From the IMG/VR virus record IMGVR_UViG_2737471827_000003, positions 1 to 20,580 of that record: a stretch of 20,580 nt of DNA; one strand, given 5' to 3'. Origin of the DNA: a virus. Lineage: Duplodnaviria > Heunggongvirae > Uroviricota > Caudoviricetes. Of this stretch, positions 1-9,673 are shown piece after piece (position 1 is the first letter of the stretch; every line of letters starts with the position of its first letter). Made by a program: the position numbers and the translations under genes. The notes under the pieces were generated by a model. It was given only the letters and a program-made list of their open reading frames with translations. It did no database searches and was not told where the DNA came from.

Positions 1-690
1 CAGCTGCGTGACCAGACATCAGAATCACTCGAGCAACTTGCTCATCAAAACTTGTCAGCATGGATGATTGACGTCATCCGTCACGCAATCAGCGGTACGC
101 AGGAGAGGGAGTTATCGCTGGCTGAATTATCCTGGTGGGCGGTCTGCAATCAGGTGGCTGATGCGCTTCCGGAGTCTGTATTGTGTCGTTCACTGGGATT
201 ACCGGTGGAAAAAATCCGCTCCGTATACCGTGAGAGTGACATCGTACCGGGAGAACAGACTGCCACCAGCATACTGAAGCAGCGCACAAAAAATATTGCG
301 CTGCCACTTCACGTCCACCAGCAACAGCCCCCACTCCAGGAAAAGACGTTAGTAAGCATCGCCGTTGATCCGGAGTCTCCGGCTCAGTATCTCCAGCGCC
401 AGAAACCACAACGGGAAGAGATGCCTGTATACACGCGCTGGGTAAAAACGCAGAAATGCATGACGTGCGGTAATCAGGCAGATGATCCGCATCACATCAT
501 TGGTCATGGACTGGGAGGGATGGGAACAAAGGCTGATGATTTGTTTGTTATTCCGCTGTGCCGTAAATGTCATAACGAACTGCACGCCGGGGTAAAAGAT
601 TTTGAAGAAAAACACGGCAGCCAGCTGTTGTTGCTGATTCGTTTTTTAATGCACGCGAGAAATTCGGGTGTCCTGAAGTGGAAAGCATGA
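1..690 (+). CDS. Prophage nin-region protein, DUF968/YdfU-like, 5'-partial (frame open to the window edge); C-terminal Cys/His-rich HNH-like motif
   Basis: Frame 1 has no stop from position 1 to the TGA at 688-690, so the gene starts upstream of the window. C-terminal motif CMTCGN...HHIIGHG...LCRKCHNELH (CxxC, HH, CxxCH). Sits immediately upstream of rusA as in lambdoid nin regions. Family assignment is from memory. Confidence 0.5.
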   Translation, partial: QLRDQTSESLEQLAHQNLSAWMIDVIRHAISGTQERELSLAELSWWAVCNQVADALPESVLCRSLGLPVEKIRSVYRESDIVPGEQTATSILKQRTKNIALPLHVHQQQPPLQEKTLVSIAVDPESPAQYLQRQKPQREEMPVYTRWVKTQKCMTCGNQADDPHHIIGHGLGGMGTKADDLFVIPLCRKCHNELHAGVKDFEEKHGSQLLLLIRFLMHARNSGVLKWKA

Positions 691-1056
691 ATGACTGAAC
701 GCATAGAATTTGTTTTGCCTTACCCGCCGACGGTGAATACTTACTGGCGACGTCGCGGCAGCACATATTTTGTATCAAAAGCCGGTGAGCGTTATCGCCG
801 AGATGTGGCGCTTATTGTTCGCCATCAGCAACTGAAATTAAACCTCTCCGGAAGGCTGGCGATAAAGATTATTGCAGAGCCACCGGATAAGCGCCGTCGT
901 GACCTGGACAATATCCTGAAAGCACCACTGGATGCGCTGACGCATGCCGGACTACTCATAGACGACGAGCAGTTTGATGAAATCAATATTGTGCGCGGTC
1001 AGCTCGTTCCTGGTGGGCGGCTGGGGATAAAAATCACAGAACTGGAGTGCGCATGA
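691..1056 (+). CDS. rusA: Crossover junction endodeoxyribonuclease RusA (Holliday junction resolvase)
   Basis: 121 aa translation MTERIEFVLPYPPTVNTYWRRRG...DLDNILKAPLDALTHAGLLIDDEQF matches the RusA family; position just upstream of Q is typical. Confidence 0.85.
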   Translation: MTERIEFVLPYPPTVNTYWRRRGSTYFVSKAGERYRRDVALIVRHQQLKLNLSGRLAIKIIAEPPDKRRRDLDNILKAPLDALTHAGLLIDDEQFDEINIVRGQLVPGGRLGIKITELECA

Positions 1057-1742
1057 ATAACCAGTATTTACAGTTTGTGCGTGAGCAGCTCATTATCGCC
1101 ACCGCTGATTTGAGTGGGGCAACAAAAGGTCAGCTTGAAGCCTGGCAGGAGAATGCCATGTTCGATACAGGGCGTTACAGGCGAAAAAAAATCCGGTACC
1201 GCGATGAAGTGACTGGAAAAATGATAACGCGGGATAATCCACCAATCCCGGGAAAACAATCACTGGCGAATGGCTCATCAATTGCCCTGGTCAGCCCGGT
1301 TGAGTTTTCGACATCATCATGGCGGCGGGCTTTGCTGTCTCTTGAAGAGCATCATAAAGCCTGGTTGTTGTGGTGTTACGGCGAGAGTATTTGTTGGGAA
1401 TATCAGATCGCGATAACACAGTGGGCGTGGAATGAATTTAATACTCAATCCGGTACCAGAAAAATTGCAGGGAAAACGCAGGAACGCCTGAAAAAATTAA
1501 TCTGGCTGGCGGCGCAGGCAGTAAAAGCAGAACTTTTTGGTGGGGAAGGTTATGAATACCAGGAGCTGGCATTACTGGCGGGAGTGACAACTAAAAACTG
1601 GTCCAAAACATTTACTCGTCACTGGGTTGCAATGAAACACATTTTTCAACGACTGGATAGTGAGGCTTTATTGTTTGTAATGAGAACACGTTCAAAACAA
1701 AAGGCGGCATTTTCAAAGCAAAGTGTTGCAAAAGTAGATTGA
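1053..1742 (+). CDS. Late-gene antiterminator, Q-like
   Basis: ORF directly downstream of rusA (overlapping its stop) and directly upstream of a sigma70-like promoter plus intrinsic terminator, the canonical Q/PR'/tR' arrangement. ATG at 1053 is preceded by GGAG at 1044-1047; the ORF track's start at 1047 is a GTG. Call is by synteny more than by recognised sequence. Confidence 0.6.
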   Translation: MNNQYLQFVREQLIIATADLSGATKGQLEAWQENAMFDTGRYRRKKIRYRDEVTGKMITRDNPPIPGKQSLANGSSIALVSPVEFSTSSWRRALLSLEEHHKAWLLWCYGESICWEYQIAITQWAWNEFNTQSGTRKIAGKTQERLKKLIWLAAQAVKAELFGGEGYEYQELALLAGVTTKNWSKTFTRHWVAMKHIFQRLDSEALLFVMRTRSKQKAAFSKQSVAKVD

Positions 1743-1754
1743 AAGGCATATATT
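1726..1754 (+). promoter_or_regulatory. Candidate late promoter PR' (-35 TTGCAA 1726-1731, 17-nt spacer, -10 TATATT 1749-1754), overlapping the Q stop codon
   Basis: Near-consensus sigma70 hexamers with 17-bp spacing, placed at the Q 3' end and about 50-80 nt upstream of an intrinsic terminator, as at lambda PR'/qut. Confidence 0.55.
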
Positions 1755-1804
1755 TCATGCAAATCTGATATTTTGCCGATTTTGTACGTGATGGCAAAAG
1801 CAAA

Positions 1805-1876: not shown

Positions 1877-1906
1877 GTAAGCGACTCGTCAGAACCGTAT
1901 TGATAT

Positions 1907-3478
1907 TTACTGAGAGCTCAGATCAACTTTCCAGGGCAACAGATCGCGTACCCGGTTTGCCGGCCAGTCCTGGATATGTTCAATGACGTAACGCAGCCAC
2001 TTTTCTGGCTCCACATTGTTCAGACGGCATGTGCCGATCAGCGAGTACAACACCGCCGCATGTTCACCACCGCTGTCGGAACCCGCGAACATCCAGTTTT
2101 TCCGGCCTACGGCCACTCCCCGTAAGGCGTTCTCTGCGATGTTGTTGTCGATTTCCACCCAGCCATTACTGCAGTACACGTTCAGTGCATCCCACTGTTT
2201 CAGCAGGTATGCGAACGCTTTTGCCGTATCTGAGTGACGCGACAGTGTTTTCATCTGTTGCTGTATCCAGTCATACAGTGACTGCATCAGTGGCGCGGCT
2301 CTGGCTTTTCTTGCCGCCAGACGCTGTTCTGCTGAACAGCCCCGGACCTCTGCCTCGATGGCATACAGTTCACCGATACGCTGCAGGGCTTCCGTGGTGA
2401 TGTAGGTGGACGCTCTTGCATGCACATCGTGGATTTTTCTCCGGGCATGAGCCATACACGCGGCTTCCGTTATTCTGCCGGATTCGTATAACGCCCGGTA
2501 ACCACCGTAAGCATCGGCCTGAAGCACACCGCTGTAACCGGCCAGGTGATTTTGTGGATGGATACCTTTCCGGTCCGGACTGTACGCGAACCAGACCGCC
2601 GGGGGCATCTGTGAACCGGCGTTACGGTCATCACGGACGTAGACCCACAGCCGGGCTGTCCGGGTTTTACCGCTGCCCGGCTCCTGGACCGGGACGGGGA
2701 TATCATCAGCATGGACTTTACCGGGCATCAGCACATACTGGCGCAGGACGTCATACAGCGGCTCCAGCAGTTCAGCAACAGCACCTGTCCAGCGCCCCAG
2801 TGTGGCACGGCTCAGCTCCACTCCCTGACGACGGTATATTTCTGACTGGCGGTATAACGGCAGATGGTCTGCATATTTCCCGGTGACAACATGGGCCAGA
2901 AGCCCCGCTCCGGCATAACTGCGTGCAATGGGTTTTGAAGGTACTGGTGCCTGCACGATATGGTCGCACCGGCAACAGGCCTGTTTCGGACGTTGTGTTT
3001 CGATAACCTTAAAGGCGCTGCTGATAAGCTCCAGTTGCTCTGACACATCACATCCCAGAGAACTGAGTTCACCACCACAGGCAGGACAGCATTCCTCTTC
3101 CGGCCGGATAACCCGGGTTTCACGGGGAAGTGAGGCCGGTAACGGTTTACGGGCTGAAGACTGGCGCAGGGCGGATGGCAGTACCGGGTCATATTGCTCA
3201 CCCAGCGTTTCCGCCATTTCTTCCTGAAGTGCGCTGATTCGCTCCTGTGCTTCCTGTATCTGCCGTTCGGTTTTTGCACGAAGTTTTTCTGAGCTTTTAC
3301 CGAACTGCATACGTTGCAGTTTCGCAACCAGCGCCTTCAGCCGGTTGATTTCGGAAGCATAAGCCGCCACCCGCTGTGAGAGCAGGCGGTTGTATTCAGC
3401 CATCTGGCGGATGGTGTCCTGTTGCGTCTGCAACAGTGCCCGCAGGCGGGCGTTCTCATGAGCAAGTGAGGTGTCCAT
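1907..3478 (-). CDS. IS66-family transposase (third and largest ORF of the element)
   Basis: 523 aa with an N-terminal coiled-coil/leucine-zipper region, a CxxC...CxxC cluster, and a central/C-terminal region typical of IS66 TnpC-type transposases. Confidence 0.85.
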
Positions 3479-3497
3479 ATCCTCACTTTACAACGGG

Positions 3498-3845
3498 TTA
3501 TATGCGGATTCCAGCGCGTTCCGTTCGTTTCGGGTGCTTCCAGTTGATACCTTCAAGAAGCATGGATAACTGAGCCGGAGTAAGGTGCACCTTGCCGTCA
3601 CGGGTGACTGGCCAGACGAAGCGGCCCCGCTCCAGGCGTTTGGTGAAGAGGCACAGTCCGTCACTGTCAGCCCACAACACTTTTATCTGGTCACCCCGGC
3701 GTCCGCGGAAGATGAACAGGTGTCCGGAGAACGGGTCATCCTTCAGGACGTTCTGAACTTTTGATGCCAGGCCGTTAAAGCCATTTCGCATATCGGTGAT
3801 ACCTGCAACCAGCCAGATACGCGAACCTGCAGGGAGAGATATCAT
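3498..3845 (-). CDS. IS66-family accessory protein, Orf2/TnpB-like
   Basis: 115 aa, MISLPAGSRIWLVAGITDMRNGFNGLA...; conserved IS66 Orf2 signature; start overlaps the upstream ORF (ATGA). Confidence 0.85.
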   Translation of the reverse strand: MISLPAGSRIWLVAGITDMRNGFNGLASKVQNVLKDDPFSGHLFIFRGRRGDQIKVLWADSDGLCLFTKRLERGRFVWPVTRDGKVHLTPAQLSMLLEGINWKHPKRTERAGIRI

Positions 3846-4522
3846 CAGTGGCTGCTCCCTTTTATTTCGCGGATAAGTGTCTGTAATAACGCCGGCGTCA
3901 GTTTACCTTTAAGCCTGAGAGTTCCGGCCGGCAGAACCAGCTCACAACACAGACTGTCGGACGGTGTATTTATCTGCTCTGGTTCCTGTGCGGGGGCCGG
4001 GATTTTATTATCCGGCTCCGGCGTTAACGTCACGGGAAGCAGTGCCGGCATATTTTTTCCGGAAGGCAGCAGGCCACCTTTCCGGTATTGATGGCGCCAG
4101 TTGAAGAGCAGGTTATCGTTGATTCCGTTTTCCCGGGCGATCTGCGCCACACAGGCTCCGGGCTGCAGTGACTGCTCCACTAAGGCGATTTTAAACTCAT
4201 AAGGGAAGTTGGGCCGCCGGGGACGTTTTTTTACCACGGGGGCTTCGGATATAACGGTGCTTTCAGGACGTACGACTGGTACCGTGGAAAATTGTCCGTA
4301 AAGGCAGGCATCAAGTTCCTGCTCCGACATGCCTGCGGGCAAAGGCCACGAAAGGCCAGCTCTCCGAAAGCGCACGAACATACTACAAACTGTTGATTTT
4401 GGTACACCCAGGCGACGCCCGGCCACAACCCGGGGTAAATGTTCTTCAAAGTGAAGACGTAAAGCTTCAGTGATCCAGGTCCGGTGTTTCATACGATAGT
4501 GTCCATTAAAAATGATGGACAT
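3845..4522 (-). CDS. IS66-family accessory protein, Orf1/TnpA-like, with an N-terminal HTH-like extension (true start uncertain)
   Basis: C-terminal part ...RRPNFPYEFKIALVEQSLQPGACVAQIARENGINDNLLFNWRHQYRKG resembles IS66 Orf1. The 225-aa longest ORF is longer than typical, so an internal start is possible. Confidence 0.65.
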   Translation of the reverse strand: MSIIFNGHYRMKHRTWITEALRLHFEEHLPRVVAGRRLGVPKSTVCSMFVRFRRAGLSWPLPAGMSEQELDACLYGQFSTVPVVRPESTVISEAPVVKKRPRRPNFPYEFKIALVEQSLQPGACVAQIARENGINDNLLFNWRHQYRKGGLLPSGKNMPALLPVTLTPEPDNKIPAPAQEPEQINTPSDSLCCELVLPAGTLRLKGKLTPALLQTLIREIKGSSH

Positions 4523-4575
4523 TATTTTTGTAGAGCCGGAGGAAACAGACCAGACGGTTTAAATGAGCCGGTTAC

Positions 4576-4583
4576 GGTGGAGG
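4576..4583. repeat. Target-site duplication (right copy) GGTGGAGG
   Basis: Identical to 1869-1876. Confidence 0.8.
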
Positions 4584-4659: not shown

Positions 4660-4735
4660 GGCCCTTTAGCTCAGAGGTGAGAGCGAGCGACTCATAATCG
4701 CCAGGTCGCTGGTTCAAATCCAGCAAGGGCCACCA
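4660..4735 (+). tRNA. tRNA-Ile2-like (anticodon CAU, presumably lysidine-modified; formally Met by anticodon)
   Basis: Cloverleaf folded by hand: acceptor GGCCCTT/AAGGGCC, anticodon loop CTCATAA, T-loop TTCAAAT, encoded CCA. Overall strongly resembles E. coli ileX-type tRNA (recalled from memory). Confidence 0.75.
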
Positions 4736-4736
4736 A

Positions 4737-4813
4737 CCGCCACTAGCTCATCAGGAAAGAGCGTCAACCCTTTAAGTTGAGTGTGCGAGGTTCGAGTCCC
4801 CGGTGGCGGTCCA
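4737..4813 (+). tRNA. tRNA, isotype uncertain (anticodon loop CCUUUAA; nominal anticodon UUU, but C at position 33 is atypical)
   Basis: Acceptor CCGCCAC/GTGGCGG, D-stem GCTC/GAGC, anticodon stem TCAAC/GTTGA, T-loop TTCGAGT, encoded CCA; 77 nt. One A:C mismatch in the T-stem. Confidence 0.6.
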
Positions 4814-4815
4814 GT

Positions 4816-4891
<76 letters not shown>

Positions 4892-4894
4892 TAT

Positions 4895-4969
<75 letters not shown>

Positions 4970-6935: not shown

Positions 6936-7286
6936 ATGCCATCACGAATCCCACGCGCCTGCCGTAAGCGTGGATGTGCAGGTACAACCACAGACAGTTC
7001 TGGTTACTGCGATAAACATCGTGGCGAAGGATGGGTACAGCATCAACGCGGACTGAGCCGCCACCAGCGTGGCTATGGCTCGAAATGGGATGCCATACGT
7101 GCGCGCATACTGAAGCGTGATAATCATCTGTGTCAGAACTGCCTGCGCAATGGGAGAGTCGTTGAAGCCAGAACTGTGGACCACATCATTCCGAAAGCTC
7201 ATGGTGGCACGGATGCAGACAGTAACCTGCAGAGTCTGTGCTGGCCCTGTCATAAAGCAAAAACAGCGCGCGAACGCATCAATTGA
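6936..7286 (+). CDS. HNH endonuclease, phage packaging-associated
   Basis: 116 aa with CxxC...C...H, DHIIPKAHGG...N...LCWPCH (HNH motif); immediately upstream of the terminase genes. Confidence 0.85.
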   Translation: MPSRIPRACRKRGCAGTTTDSSGYCDKHRGEGWVQHQRGLSRHQRGYGSKWDAIRARILKRDNHLCQNCLRNGRVVEARTVDHIIPKAHGGTDADSNLQSLCWPCHKAKTARERIN

Positions 7287-7433: not shown

Positions 7434-7916
7434 ATGTCTGGACCCCCGAAAACCCCGCCACGCCTGCATTTGATACGAGGCAACCCCTCAAAGCGCCCCG
7501 TTAAAGACTCAAAAAAAACCGCTAAAAAGGATGAAAAAGGTCTCCCTAAAATTCCGCAACATTTAGGGGCGCAGGGGAAGTACTGGTTCAGGCGAATGGC
7601 AGAAGAACTGAATGCGGAAGGGATCATTTCTCAGCTTGATGCGCGTGCACTCGAGTTACTGGTGGAAGCCTACACCGAATACCGGCATCACTGCGAAACC
7701 CTCGATGTTGAGGGATATACCTACCGCACGGAAACGCAGAACGGTGATGTGCTGATTAAGGCACACCCCGCGGCGGCAATGAAAGCGGATGCCTGGAAGA
7801 GGATCCGGGCGATGCTTGCAGAGTTTGGCATGTCACCGGCAAGCCGGGCTAAAGTAAATATCGCCGGACCGGATGATGTCGATCCGCTGGCGGAGCTTTT
7901 AAAAGCGAGAGACTGA
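7434..7916 (+). CDS. Terminase small subunit (P27-family-like)
   Basis: 160 aa with a basic N-terminus, directly upstream of and overlapping the large terminase. Confidence 0.8.
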   Translation: MSGPPKTPPRLHLIRGNPSKRPVKDSKKTAKKDEKGLPKIPQHLGAQGKYWFRRMAEELNAEGIISQLDARALELLVEAYTEYRHHCETLDVEGYTYRTETQNGDVLIKAHPAAAMKADAWKRIRAMLAEFGMSPASRAKVNIAGPDDVDPLAELLKARD

Positions 7917-9673
7917 TGGCAAAAGTGGCTGACGGGATCCGCTACGCCGAACGTGTTGTTGCAGGAGAAATTGTTGCTGGCGAATTTGTCCGTCTGGCCT
8001 GCCAGCGTTTTCTTGATGATCTGAAGTACGGCGAGAAGCGGGGGATTTATTTCAGTGAACCCCGTGCGCAGCACATCCTGAATTTCTACAAATTTGTGCC
8101 CCATGTGAAAGGGGCGCTGGCAGGCCAGCCCATTGAACTGATGGACTGGCATGTATTTATCCTCATTAATATTTTTGGTTTTGTCATTCCGCTGGTGAAT
8201 GAAGAGACCGGGGAAGTTGTCATGCGCAGCGATGGCAGCGGACGCCCGGTGATGGTGCGCCGGTTCCGGACGGCGTACAACGAAGTCGCCCGTAAAAACG
8301 CAAAATCAACCCTGTCATCGGGTATCGGTCTGTATATGACGGGGGCAGATGGTGAAGGTGGTGCTGAGGTGTATTCAGCCGCAACCACGCGTGATCAGGC
8401 CAGAATCGTGTTTGAAGACGCCAAAAATATGGTCAGAAAAGCCCGGTCGACACTCGGGCGGTTGTTTGACTTCAACAAGTTGGCGATTTACCAGGAGCAG
8501 AGCGCATCAAAATTTGAACCGCTTTCCTCGGATGCAAACAACCTGGACGGTCTGAACATCCACTGTGCCATTATTGATGAGCTGCATGCACATAAAACCC
8601 GCGACGTGTGGGACGTTCTGGAGACGGCAACCGGTGCCCGTCTGCAGTCTCTGTTATTTGGCATCACCACGGCTGGCTTTAACAAGGAAGGGATTTGTTA
8701 CGAGCAGCGTGATTACGCCATCAAGGTATTGCGAGGCTATAACAGCGACGTGGAGGGCGCGGTAAAAGACGACTCCTACTTTGCGATCATTTACACGCTC
8801 GATGAGGGAGATGATCCGTTTGATGAAACGGTCTGGCAGAAAGCGAATCCTGGCCTGGGCATCTGTAAACGCTGGGATGATCTGCGTCGTCTGGCGAAAA
8901 AAGCGAAGGAGCAGGTCTCTGCGCGGGTAAATTTTTTTACCAAACACATGAATGTGTGGGTCACTGCCGAATCTGCCTGGATGGATATGATTAAGTGGGA
9001 GAAGTGCGAATACATTGCTCCACAACATGAGCTGAAAACATATCCCATGTGGGTCGGCGTCGACCTTGCTCATAAGATTGATATCTGTGCGGCGGCAAAA
9101 CTCTGGCGAACCGATAACGGACATGTTCATGCTGATTTTAAATTCTGGCTTCCGGAAGGACGGCTGGAACGATGCTCGCGGCAGCAGGCAGAACTTTACC
9201 GGAAGTGGGCGGAGATGGATAAGCTCATCCTGACGGATGGTGATGTTATCGATCATGCTCAGATAAAAAGTGACTTACTGGAATGGATTGGCGGTGAAAA
9301 CCTCAGGGAACTGGGATTTGACCCGTGGAGCGCAATGCAGTTCAGCCTGGCACTGGCTGAAGAAGGGATACCGCTGGTGGAGGTTCCGCAGACGGTCCGC
9401 AATCTGTCAGAGGCCATGAAGGAAACGGAATCACTGGTTTATGCCGGGCGTTTCCATCACAGCAATCATCCGGTCATGAACTGGATGATGTCTAACGTTA
9501 CTGTAAAACCGGACAAAAACGACAACATCTTCCCGAATAAATCCACGCCTGAAGCCAAAATCGACGGCCCTGTTGCACTTTTTACGGCCATGAGCCGCTT
9601 TCTGGTAAATGGCGGGGACGTGAATGACTTTCTGTCCACGCTTGATCCTGATGAGGACCTGTTAATTCTGTGA
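7916..9673 (+). CDS. Terminase large subunit
   Basis: 585 aa, with an N-terminal ATPase region and a C-terminal nuclease region; position between small terminase and portal. Confidence 0.85.
   Translation: MAKVADGIRYAERVVAGEIVAGEFVRLACQRFLDDLKYGEKRGIYFSEPRAQHILNFYKFVPHVKGALAGQPIELMDWHVFILINIFGFVIPLVNEETGEVVMRSDGSGRPVMVRRFRTAYNEVARKNAKSTLSSGIGLYMTGADGEGGAEVYSAATTRDQARIVFEDAKNMVRKARSTLGRLFDFNKLAIYQEQSASKFEPLSSDANNLDGLNIHCAIIDELHAHKTRDVWDVLETATGARLQSLLFGITTAGFNKEGICYEQRDYAIKVLRGYNSDVEGAVKDDSYFAIIYTLDEGDDPFDETVWQKANPGLGICKRWDDLRRLAKKAKEQVSARVNFFTKHMNVWVTAESAWMDMIKWEKCEYIAPQHELKTYPMWVGVDLAHKIDICAAAKLWRTDNGHVHADFKFWLPEGRLERCSRQQAELYRKWAEMDKLILTDGDVIDHAQIKSDLLEWIGGENLRELGFDPWSAMQFSLALAEEGIPLVEVPQTVRNLSEAMKETESLVYAGRFHHSNHPVMNWMMSNVTVKPDKNDNIFPNKSTPEAKIDGPVALFTAMSRFLVNGGDVNDFLSTLDPDEDLLIL

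Follow-up and report, generated by a model that had tools for sequence, protein, structure and literature searches.

The Ref protein of phage P1 is a RecA-dependent, recombination-enhancing HNH nuclease. The Rap (NinG) protein of phage lambda acts on branched recombination intermediates (PMC5714182). The families DUF968 and DUF1364 constitute group 7 of the His-Me finger proteins, in which YdfU and YbcO (PDB ID:3g27) are named; neighbouring RusA, Q and antirepressor genes are noted there, and a role in recombination has been hypothesised (Jablonska et al. 2017, PMC5714182). In phages of Gram-positive bacteria (Listeria, Staphylococcus), Orf-HNH fusions carrying the label 'DUF968' have been described (Curtis et al. 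2014, PMC4118853), while the HusR paper is concerned with the regulation of rusA only. YdfU itself is one of the remaining uncharacterised 'y-genes' of E. coli K-12, and our literature search has found no biochemical, genetic or other experimental paper on DUF968 or YdfU.

Here, we have analysed a stretch of 20,580 nucleotides from a virus of the class Caudoviricetes (IMG/VR record IMGVR_UViG_2737471827_000003, positions 1 to 20,580), referred to below as the window, and in particular the truncated gene that is located at its 5' edge. A sequence-only reading of the window had interpreted this gene as a gene of the nin region with a Cys/His cluster that recalls HNH or zinc-ribbon nucleases, an interpretation that is supported and that agrees with the in-silico classification in the literature. 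What has been found was known before, as the assignment to group 7 dates from 2017 (PMC5714182): the window re-identifies a catalogued gene family with a nuclease fold that was predicted in that year and raises no new question, and the residual value of the locus lies in the biochemical function of YdfU and in its unannotated N-terminal domain.

Extent and neighbourhood of the truncated gene

Frame 1 of the plus strand is free of stop codons from the first base of the window until the TGA at positions 688-690, i.e. over 229 codons. The sequence-only reading had noted that the frame is open to the edge of the window and that the gene must be longer than the part shown, and this is borne out by near-identical prophage copies (L001 and L009), in which the gene measures 1059 nt, or 352 codons; by comparison with these full-length copies, the first 123 codons are located upstream of the window. 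The recovery of the upstream sequence, which had been proposed as a check, has succeeded with two sources that contain the full gene of 352 codons: the prophage of E. coli M15, with 98.9% nucleotide identity to the ydfU-rusA-Q stretch (megablast, window 1-1800), and the IMG/VR locus L009, which encodes a protein that agrees with the window fragment in all of its final 229 residues, with zero nonsynonymous differences, so that the window begins at residue 124. The match to PHROG 96, 'HNH endonuclease' (E=8e-100), spans profile positions 124-334 of 334, and its start likewise indicates that approximately 123 residues are missing from the fragment. The length of 212 aa that had been given for the fragment has to be corrected to 229 codons, since it belongs to a mechanical open reading frame that begins at an internal, in-frame TTG at position 52; nothing suggests that this TTG is a real start.

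Some part of the ydfU-rusA-Q stretch (megablast, window 1-1800) matches 4302 of 5426 complete E. coli genomes, and the stretch also occurs in temperate phages, e.g. vB_EcoM-606R7 and the 'PPompW' prophages; the copies in temperate phages and prophages are annotated as 'ydfU' or as 'DUF968 domain-containing protein'. Over the 687 nt of the window's coding sequence, the dN/dS ratio against 23 distinct relatives ranges between 0.08 and 0.17: the coding sequence of the window copy is functional and subject to purifying selection. By sequence comparison, the gene at positions 1-690 is a member of the ydfU family (DUF968) in the nin region of a lambdoid prophage, and its 3' two-thirds are present here (Table 1).

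Table 1. Features of the ydfU locus, in window coordinates. Residues are numbered as in the full-length protein of 352 aa; fractions refer to 68 representative C-terminal domains with pairwise identity of at most 50%.
Feature	Position	Strand	Residues	Basis or remark
ydfU-family (DUF968) gene, 3' part	1..690	+	124-352 of 352
N-terminal domain, tail	1..201	+	124-190	AlphaFold2 pLDDT 83-96
Inter-domain linker	202..363	+	191-244	pLDDT 42-68
C-terminal HNH/His-Me finger domain (DUF968 core)	364..687	+	245-352	AlphaFold2
First zinc knuckle, C-M-T-C (predicted)	457..468	+	C276-C279	C276 68/68, C279 57/68
His pair at the end of strand 1	490..495	+	H287-H288	H287 64/68, H288 65/68
Asp at the 'N' position of the HNH motif, 15 residues past H288	538..540	+	D303	68/68
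Second zinc knuckle and helix ligands, C-R-K-C-H-N-E-L-H (predicted)	559..585	+	C310-C313-H314-H318	Conservation: C310 60/68, C or H at 313 57/68, H314 63/68, H318 62/68
rusA (Holliday-junction resolvase)	691..1056	+		Pfam RusA E=4e-15, PHROG 34 E=2e-56
Q (late-gene antiterminator)	1053..1742	+		Phage_antiter_Q E=2e-91, PHROG 304 E=1e-107
Separate canonical HNH gene, immediately upstream of terS/terL	6936..7286			Pfam HNH E=8e-17

The location beside rusA in the nin region, which the sequence-only reading had also claimed, is confirmed by the Pfam assignments of rusA and Q. The TGA of ydfU is directly followed by the ATG of rusA (691-693), and the stop codon of rusA overlaps the start codon of Q (ATGA, 1053-1056); given these abutting and overlapping ends, ydfU, rusA and Q make up one tight unit, with which the delayed-early operon ends. 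In the M15 prophage, replication protein P, small genes of the nin type and hokD are located upstream of ydfU. As the search for related loci with alignment A3 has returned only relatives that are at least 79% identical, the synteny of distant homologs (25-42% identity) has been taken from the contigs that encode them: there, the gene is located after replication genes (O/P-like, Phg_2220_C, HTH_36) and before an antiterminator gene (Phage_antiter_Q, Phage_antitermQ or Antiterm) and a lysis cassette.

The gene at the first or second position downstream differs among loci. It encodes RusA in the window and in loci L089 and L096, a DUF1064-like PD-(D/E)XK protein in L090/L091 and, weakly, in L088 (where the downstream gene has additional weak Pfam matches to endonuclease I and TnsA), and a VRR-NUC protein in L097. 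Q follows directly, with no resolvase, in L095, in the Qin prophage of K-12 and in phage Tritos; nothing recognisable is located downstream in L093, and in L086 a convergent DUF2335 gene comes after the ydfU homolog, with RusA located approximately 2 kb upstream.

Family, domain architecture and predicted active site

The fragment matches Pfam DUF968 (PF06147) with 214.9 bits (E=1e-63, gathering threshold 27.8 bits), profile positions 1-169 of 171 being aligned with fragment residues 37-221, and with such a score the Cys/His pattern is not a product of chance; a full-length homolog scores 212 bits, with the Pfam model starting at residue 160. Pfam HNHc_6 (PF16784) is matched with 32.7 bits (E=7e-8, profile positions 119-184 of 204, cut-off 26.6), while the canonical Pfam HNH (PF01844) scores 12.8 bits (E=0.14), under its threshold of 21.4 bits: YdfU is a member of the HNH superfamily that is located outside the canonical Pfam HNH family model. 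The check that the sequence-only reading had framed as 'DUF968 versus HNH' has therefore returned both answers as true, and the either/or framing is wrong, since the DUF968 proteins belong to the HNH/His-Me finger families. The Cys/His spacing that it had pointed out is as described, i.e. C153-x-x-C156...H164-H165...C187-x-x-C190-H191...H195 in fragment numbering (nt 457-585), and the resemblance to HNH and zinc-ribbon nucleases is upheld by the matches to HNHc_6 and PHROG 96 and by the published assignment of the family to group 7 of the His-Me finger proteins (PMC5714182). That reading would have been contradicted by a non-nuclease fold with no conservation of the metal-binding motif; we have found instead that the residues of the motif are conserved in distant relatives and that a beta-beta-alpha arrangement is predicted. 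A full-length homolog, searched against 1.84 billion cluster representatives, has 2112 relatives at E<=1e-3, among which full-length relatives reach down to approximately 25-30% identity; alignment A1 consists of 32 diverse full-length relatives. We regard the assignment to DUF968 and to the HNH/His-Me finger fold as practically certain.

According to the AlphaFold2 model of the full-length protein (pLDDT 86.7), the 352 residues are predicted to be arranged as an N-terminal domain (residues 1 to approximately 190), a flexible linker and a C-terminal HNH domain (residues 245-352); the C-terminal domain modelled alone (window:343-687) has a pLDDT of 92.4 and a pTM of 0.82. The tail of the N-terminal domain, which is the part of that domain inside the window, contains predicted helices at residues 131-154, 163-172 and 181-188, and an 'LSxxELxWWAV...LP' motif that is conserved in alignment A1. 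The linker contains a conserved acidic 'RESDI' patch and one short helix, with low confidence at residues 227-242 (nt 310-357).

Just downstream of this low-confidence stretch, at the boundary between the linker and the C-terminal domain, a mosaic joint is located: the similarity that the DNA shares with phages HannyBb, mEp460, Tritos and PhiR42_1 breaks off at nt 382 (residue ~250), and the protein identity to Tritos and to K-12 YdfU, as a rough count on the printed alignments, is approximately 90% before residue ~250 and 55-60% after it. Two alleles of the C-terminal domain travel with different downstream genes, the alternative allele being followed directly by a different Q, without rusA. 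In lambdoid phages, it is common for mosaic joints to coincide with domain borders.

In the predicted C-terminal domain, a strand (residues 285-288) is followed by a Gly-rich loop, a second strand (306-309) and a helix (311-319), a topology that we confidently identify in the model as the beta-beta-alpha-metal arrangement of HNH nucleases. In the Foldseek comparison of the C-terminal domain model with the PDB, the top 16 matches are all HNH nucleases (among them EcoKMcrA, Cas5-HNH, the type I-E HNH Cascade, IscB, P1 Ref, CBASS Cap5 and Gme HNH), with a best E-value of 0.15 and TM scores of at most 0.49; the full-length model retrieves the same kinds of matches more weakly, with nothing at E<1. 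No PDB match reaches E<=1e-3 for either model, the YbcO structure 3g27 does not occur in the lists, and searches of the PDB sequences, for which the protein itself and profiles A2 and A4 served as queries, have returned nothing significant. Within BFVD, the only proteins matched by the C-terminal domain are small DUF968 proteins of phages that stand alone (E=7e-8, TM 0.79). The fold assignment is thus based on the motif, the predicted topology, the family-level HMM matches and weak but consistent structural neighbours, none of the solved structures being matched significantly. In some relatives, the C-terminal module is preceded by a LexA DNA-binding domain or by HTH domains.

To the C-terminal motif that the sequence-only reading had described, the N-terminal domain of the full protein has to be added, which comprises approximately 190 aa, is mostly located outside the window and carries a second Cys/His cluster. 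The second cluster is located just outside the window and reads C93-Q...(C/H)101-H102...C118-W-H-(H/C)121-D-N, where C93, C118 and W119 are invariant or almost so; a hairpin (residues 105-110 and 113-118) and a helix (119-125) are predicted for it by AlphaFold2. No relatives of the N-terminal domain have been found in Pfam, the PDB or BFVD. Aligned with each other by hhalign, the N-terminal and C-terminal domains are colinear over 72 columns, at a level that is not significant (E=0.031, probability 1.6%), and a BLASTP comparison of their Cys/His regions returns E=0.13. The 50%-identity library also contains sequences in which the N-terminal part is apparently joined to domains of tail-tip J, tail fibre, portal or capsid proteins; we have treated these fusions as probable assembly chimeras or prophage deletion joints and not as architectures with a function.

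The conservation of the putative metal-binding and catalytic residues has been counted over 68 representative C-terminal domains (Table 1). D303 is also invariant in alignments A1 and A2, and H288 is invariant in alignment A2. The roles proposed for these residues are modelled on characterised HNH enzymes such as colicin DNases, in which the spacing from His to Asn is similar, at 15 residues; by this analogy, H288 would be the general base, and H287 would be a ligand of the metal. The complete HH-D-H-H set (H287, H288, D303, H314, H318) is intact in 62 of the 68 domains and the putative zinc tetrad (C276, C279, C310 and Cys or His at 313) in 51; approximately ten lineages without some of the zinc cysteines keep all five catalytic residues, while the reverse occurs in four of the 68. 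The window copy carries the complete CCCC and HHDHH sets.

Proposed role and competing explanations

In the mechanism that we propose, a structural zinc on C276, C279, C310 and C313 would tie the beta-hairpin to the helix, H287, H314 and H318 would hold the catalytic divalent metal, and D303 would brace the hairpin, taking the structural part that the Asn plays in the motif; H288, acting as the general base, would activate a water molecule, and a phosphodiester bond of the DNA would then be cut. The N-terminal domain and the linker presumably provide substrate recognition or oligomerisation. The operon position and the neighbouring genes make branched intermediates of replication or recombination (D-loops, forks, junctions) the likeliest substrates, which YdfU would nick or trim before or together with RusA. 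The best available hint at such work on branched DNA is that three unrelated folds of structure-specific nucleases occupy the slot beside YdfU (RusA, DUF1064-like and VRR-NUC). Any coupling with RusA would not be obligatory, given that Q directly follows the gene in K-12 Qin, Tritos and L095. An HNH nuclease with a role on branched DNA beside RusA is, overall, our best explanation of the gene, and we hold it to be moderately probable; as to its parts, YdfU is probably an active nuclease, and its action within the RusA pathway on phage DNA that carries branches is put forward tentatively, at not quite even likelihood.

A competing explanation is that of a non-catalytic zinc-finger protein with a DNA-binding or regulatory function, in which the HNH scaffold would only bind DNA or a partner, for example modulating RusA, replication or Q-dependent transcription, and would leave the DNA uncut. 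Four of the 68 domains, and likewise P0202, P0207 and P0231 in alignment A1, keep all four cysteines without the catalytic histidines and indicate that the scaffold can persist without catalysis in some relatives, the attachment of the C-terminal module to LexA and HTH domains would suit a regulator, and one member of group 7 is annotated as a transcriptional regulator (PMC5714182). The pattern of loss across the family is, however, the opposite of what a purely structural zinc finger predicts: the HH-D-H-H set survives more often than the zinc ligands, cysteines are dropped in some ten cases that yet keep the catalytic residues, and the set of the window copy is complete. This asymmetry argues that selection has acted on catalysis and not on a purely structural zinc finger, and a non-catalytic YdfU is in our estimate distinctly unlikely. 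Catalysis might also serve the gene itself: free-standing HNH genes of phages are often homing endonucleases, and a selfish enzyme that cleaves the genomes of rival phages at a specific site, spreading itself and its neighbours, would be in line with a mosaic gene whose joint is located at the boundary of the linker and the C-terminal domain, and whose two C-domain alleles are accompanied by different downstream genes. Such joints are nevertheless usual at domain borders in lambdoid phages, Pfam finds no DNA-binding modules of the NUMOD, IENR or AP2 type, the gene is under purifying selection, and it retains the same operon position, after replication and before the antiterminator, in relatives down to approximately 25-35% identity, all of which leaves a homing endonuclease improbable.

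A nuclease directed against non-self DNA, i.e. an effector of prophage defence or superinfection exclusion, or an enzyme that degrades host DNA or counters defence, receives equally little probability from us. Prophage accessory genes near Q are often linked to defence, and the weak structural neighbours of the C-terminal domain include CBASS Cap5, McrA and Cas5-HNH; against this, neither the fragment nor the full-length homolog matches any PADLOC-DB family at E<=0.01, no gene for a sensor or regulatory partner is conserved alongside in the loci of distant homologs, and the gene is located inside a delayed-early lytic operon, abutting rusA, and is not a separately expressed moron. An HNH cofactor of terminase for cos cleavage and packaging, in the manner of HK97 gp74, would be in line with the HNH fold of the protein and with a lambdoid prophage of the cos type, but that role is filled by the separate canonical HNH gene next to terS/terL (Table 1), approximately 6 kb away from ydfU, which belongs to the early operon upstream of Q; we consider this explanation extremely improbable.

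A branch-processing HNH nuclease that acts with RusA remains the reading that we prefer. In a more elaborate version of it, which we think rather unlikely, YdfU would be a two-module enzyme whose N-terminal domain is an ancient, catalytically degenerate HNH duplicate that recognises branched DNA, and the following RusA, DUF1064-like or VRR-NUC protein would complete a conserved two-nuclease cassette that clears branches before packaging. The features in favour of a duplicate are the second Cys/His cluster with its predicted hairpin and the subsequent helix, which ends precisely where the window begins. If YdfU is indeed a branch-processing nuclease working with RusA, it would be a new component of lambdoid recombination and packaging beside Rap, Orf and RusA, and could bear on the effects of defective prophages on host DNA repair.

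Comparison with known systems

The YdfU of the K-12 Qin prophage (b1560) is 79% identical to the full-length homolog over 348 of 352 residues, without gaps (BLASTP), and shares with it the length, the two-domain layout and the position just upstream of Q; in Qin, rusA is absent between ydfU and Q, whereas the window has rusA there. The identity is lower in the C-terminal domain than in the part upstream of it, and the window differs at P257Q, W262E, P275K, H302D and W324F, well-conserved positions where its allele is off the family consensus.

YbcO (DLP12/phage 82; DUF1364, PF07102) occupies the slot directly upstream of rusA, as ydfU does here, and shares the core motif H-x-x-x-G-x-x-G-x-G-T-K-x-x-D-L ... 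C-x-x-C-H-x-E. Profile A2 of the C-terminal domain aligns with YbcO by hhalign over 48 columns (probability 78%, E=1.7e-5), while phmmer gives just E=0.41 and the YdfU homolog has no match to Pfam DUF1364; YbcO is a single domain of 96 aa, without the N-terminal domain or the linker of YdfU. The Orf-HNH fusions (HNHc_6) resemble YdfU in the C-terminal HNH half only, their N-terminal half being Orf/NinB-like. We have also considered the N-terminal domain as an Orf/NinB domain, by comparison with these fusions (PMC4118853), and have rejected this candidate, as hhalign against lambda NinB gives a probability of 0.06%. Membership of YdfU in the NinG/Rap family (PF05766) has been rejected as well: there is no Pfam NinG match, and hhalign aligns 18 columns, covering only the C-x-x-C-G knuckle, with a probability of 6%.

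The functional analogues of the proposed role are P1 Ref and lambda Rap/NinG. Ref (PDB ID:3plw) has the most even whole-domain overlap with the C-terminal domain model (TM 0.47/0.49 over 112 columns, 19% identity), at a level that is not significant (E=0.63), and one DUF968 relative touches the Pfam RecA_dep_nuc model at E=1e-3; CxxC zinc knuckles arranged in this way are absent from Ref, and a disordered basic N-terminus is found in place of the folded 190-aa domain of YdfU. Rap, like the putative nuclease YdfU, belongs to the HNH superfamily, and its gene is located in the nin region a short distance ahead of Q, with the difference that lambda has Rap and no RusA, whereas the phage of the window has YdfU together with RusA.

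A mosaic joint and two Cys/His clusters in the ydfU gene

The 5'-truncated ydfU-family gene is crossed by a phage mosaic joint at about nt 382 of the window (residue ~250), i.e. at the boundary between the linker and the C-terminal HNH domain. The part that lies upstream of the joint is common to the phages Tritos, HannyBb, mEp460 and PhiR42_1, with which it shares 85-87% nucleotide identity, and to the Qin prophage of E. coli K-12; at the protein level, its identity is roughly 90%, by our own count from the Tritos and K-12 alignments. All five carry a C-domain allele that differs from that of the window, with an amino acid identity, counted in the same way from the same two alignments, of roughly 55-60%. 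In the two loci that we have examined, K-12 Qin and Tritos, the alternative C-domain allele has no rusA behind it; a different Q gene follows directly.

The N-terminal domain of the protein, which has no relative in Pfam, PDB or BFVD, contains a conserved Cys/His cluster of its own, with the pattern C93-Q ... (C/H)101-H102 ... C118-W-H-(H/C)121-D-N; the cluster is located on a predicted beta-hairpin and helix, and its end coincides with the window edge. The cluster may have arisen by duplication of the HNH module, followed by degeneration. The alignment of the N-domain with the C-domain by hhalign is colinear, but its E-value of 0.031 is not significant. Within the linker, which is otherwise variable and poorly predicted, an acidic motif (consensus ExD / ESDI) is kept across relatives of 25-50% identity, and could serve as a docking or autoregulatory peptide.

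In five representatives of the protein library (P0146, P0179, P0177, P0128 and P0164), the YdfU N-terminal part is joined in frame to a domain of tail-tip J, tail-fibre, portal or capsid type; such fusions probably reflect chimeric assemblies, or deletion joints of defective prophages, rather than real domain architectures.

Features of the ydfU protein and of the downstream region
Feature	Position (window, unless a locus is named)	Strand	Remarks
Second conserved Cys/His cluster	L009:5277-5375; L001:5908-6006 (loci with full-length gene copies)		residues 93-125 of full-length protein; upstream of window
Short acidic motif SVYRESDIVPG	202-240		residues 196-206, linker
IS66-family insertion sequence	1877-4575	minus	2699 bp
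DDE_Tnp_IS66 transposase ORF	1907-3478	minus	of the IS66-family element
TnpB_IS66 ORF	3498-3845	minus	of the IS66-family element
HTH_Tnp_1 protein ORF	3845-4522	minus	of the IS66-family element
Four tandem tRNA genes	4660-4969		Met-CAT, Lys-TTT, Thr-TGT, Gly-TCC
Canonical HNH endonuclease gene	6936-7286		Pfam HNH, E=8e-17
Terminase small subunit	7434-7916		Terminase_4
Terminase large subunit	7916-9673		

An IS66-family element downstream of Q

The IS66-family element, with three ORFs in total, lies ~130 bp past the end of Q, shortly after a terminator-like hairpin at about 1806-1832, and separates Q from the tRNA and lysis genes. Its termini read GTAAGCG... / ...CCGGTTAC, and an 8-bp direct duplication, GGTGGAGG, is found on either side (target-site duplications 1869-1876 and 4576-4583). 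The element is absent at the same site in the related prophages L009, L001 and L002, and it may hinder Q-dependent late transcription.

Comparison of the late region with known phages

The four tRNA genes are bordered by the IS element on one side and by the holin gene on the other. At the corresponding place, the related phage vB_EcoM-606R7 carries tRNA Met, Thr and Gly only; in E. coli M15, two genes for tRNA-Arg are present. Further downstream, the separate HNH gene, whose role is unrelated to that of the ydfU HNH domain, is located immediately upstream of the small and large terminase subunits, matching the HNH-terminase packaging arrangement that is known from HK97-like cos phages.
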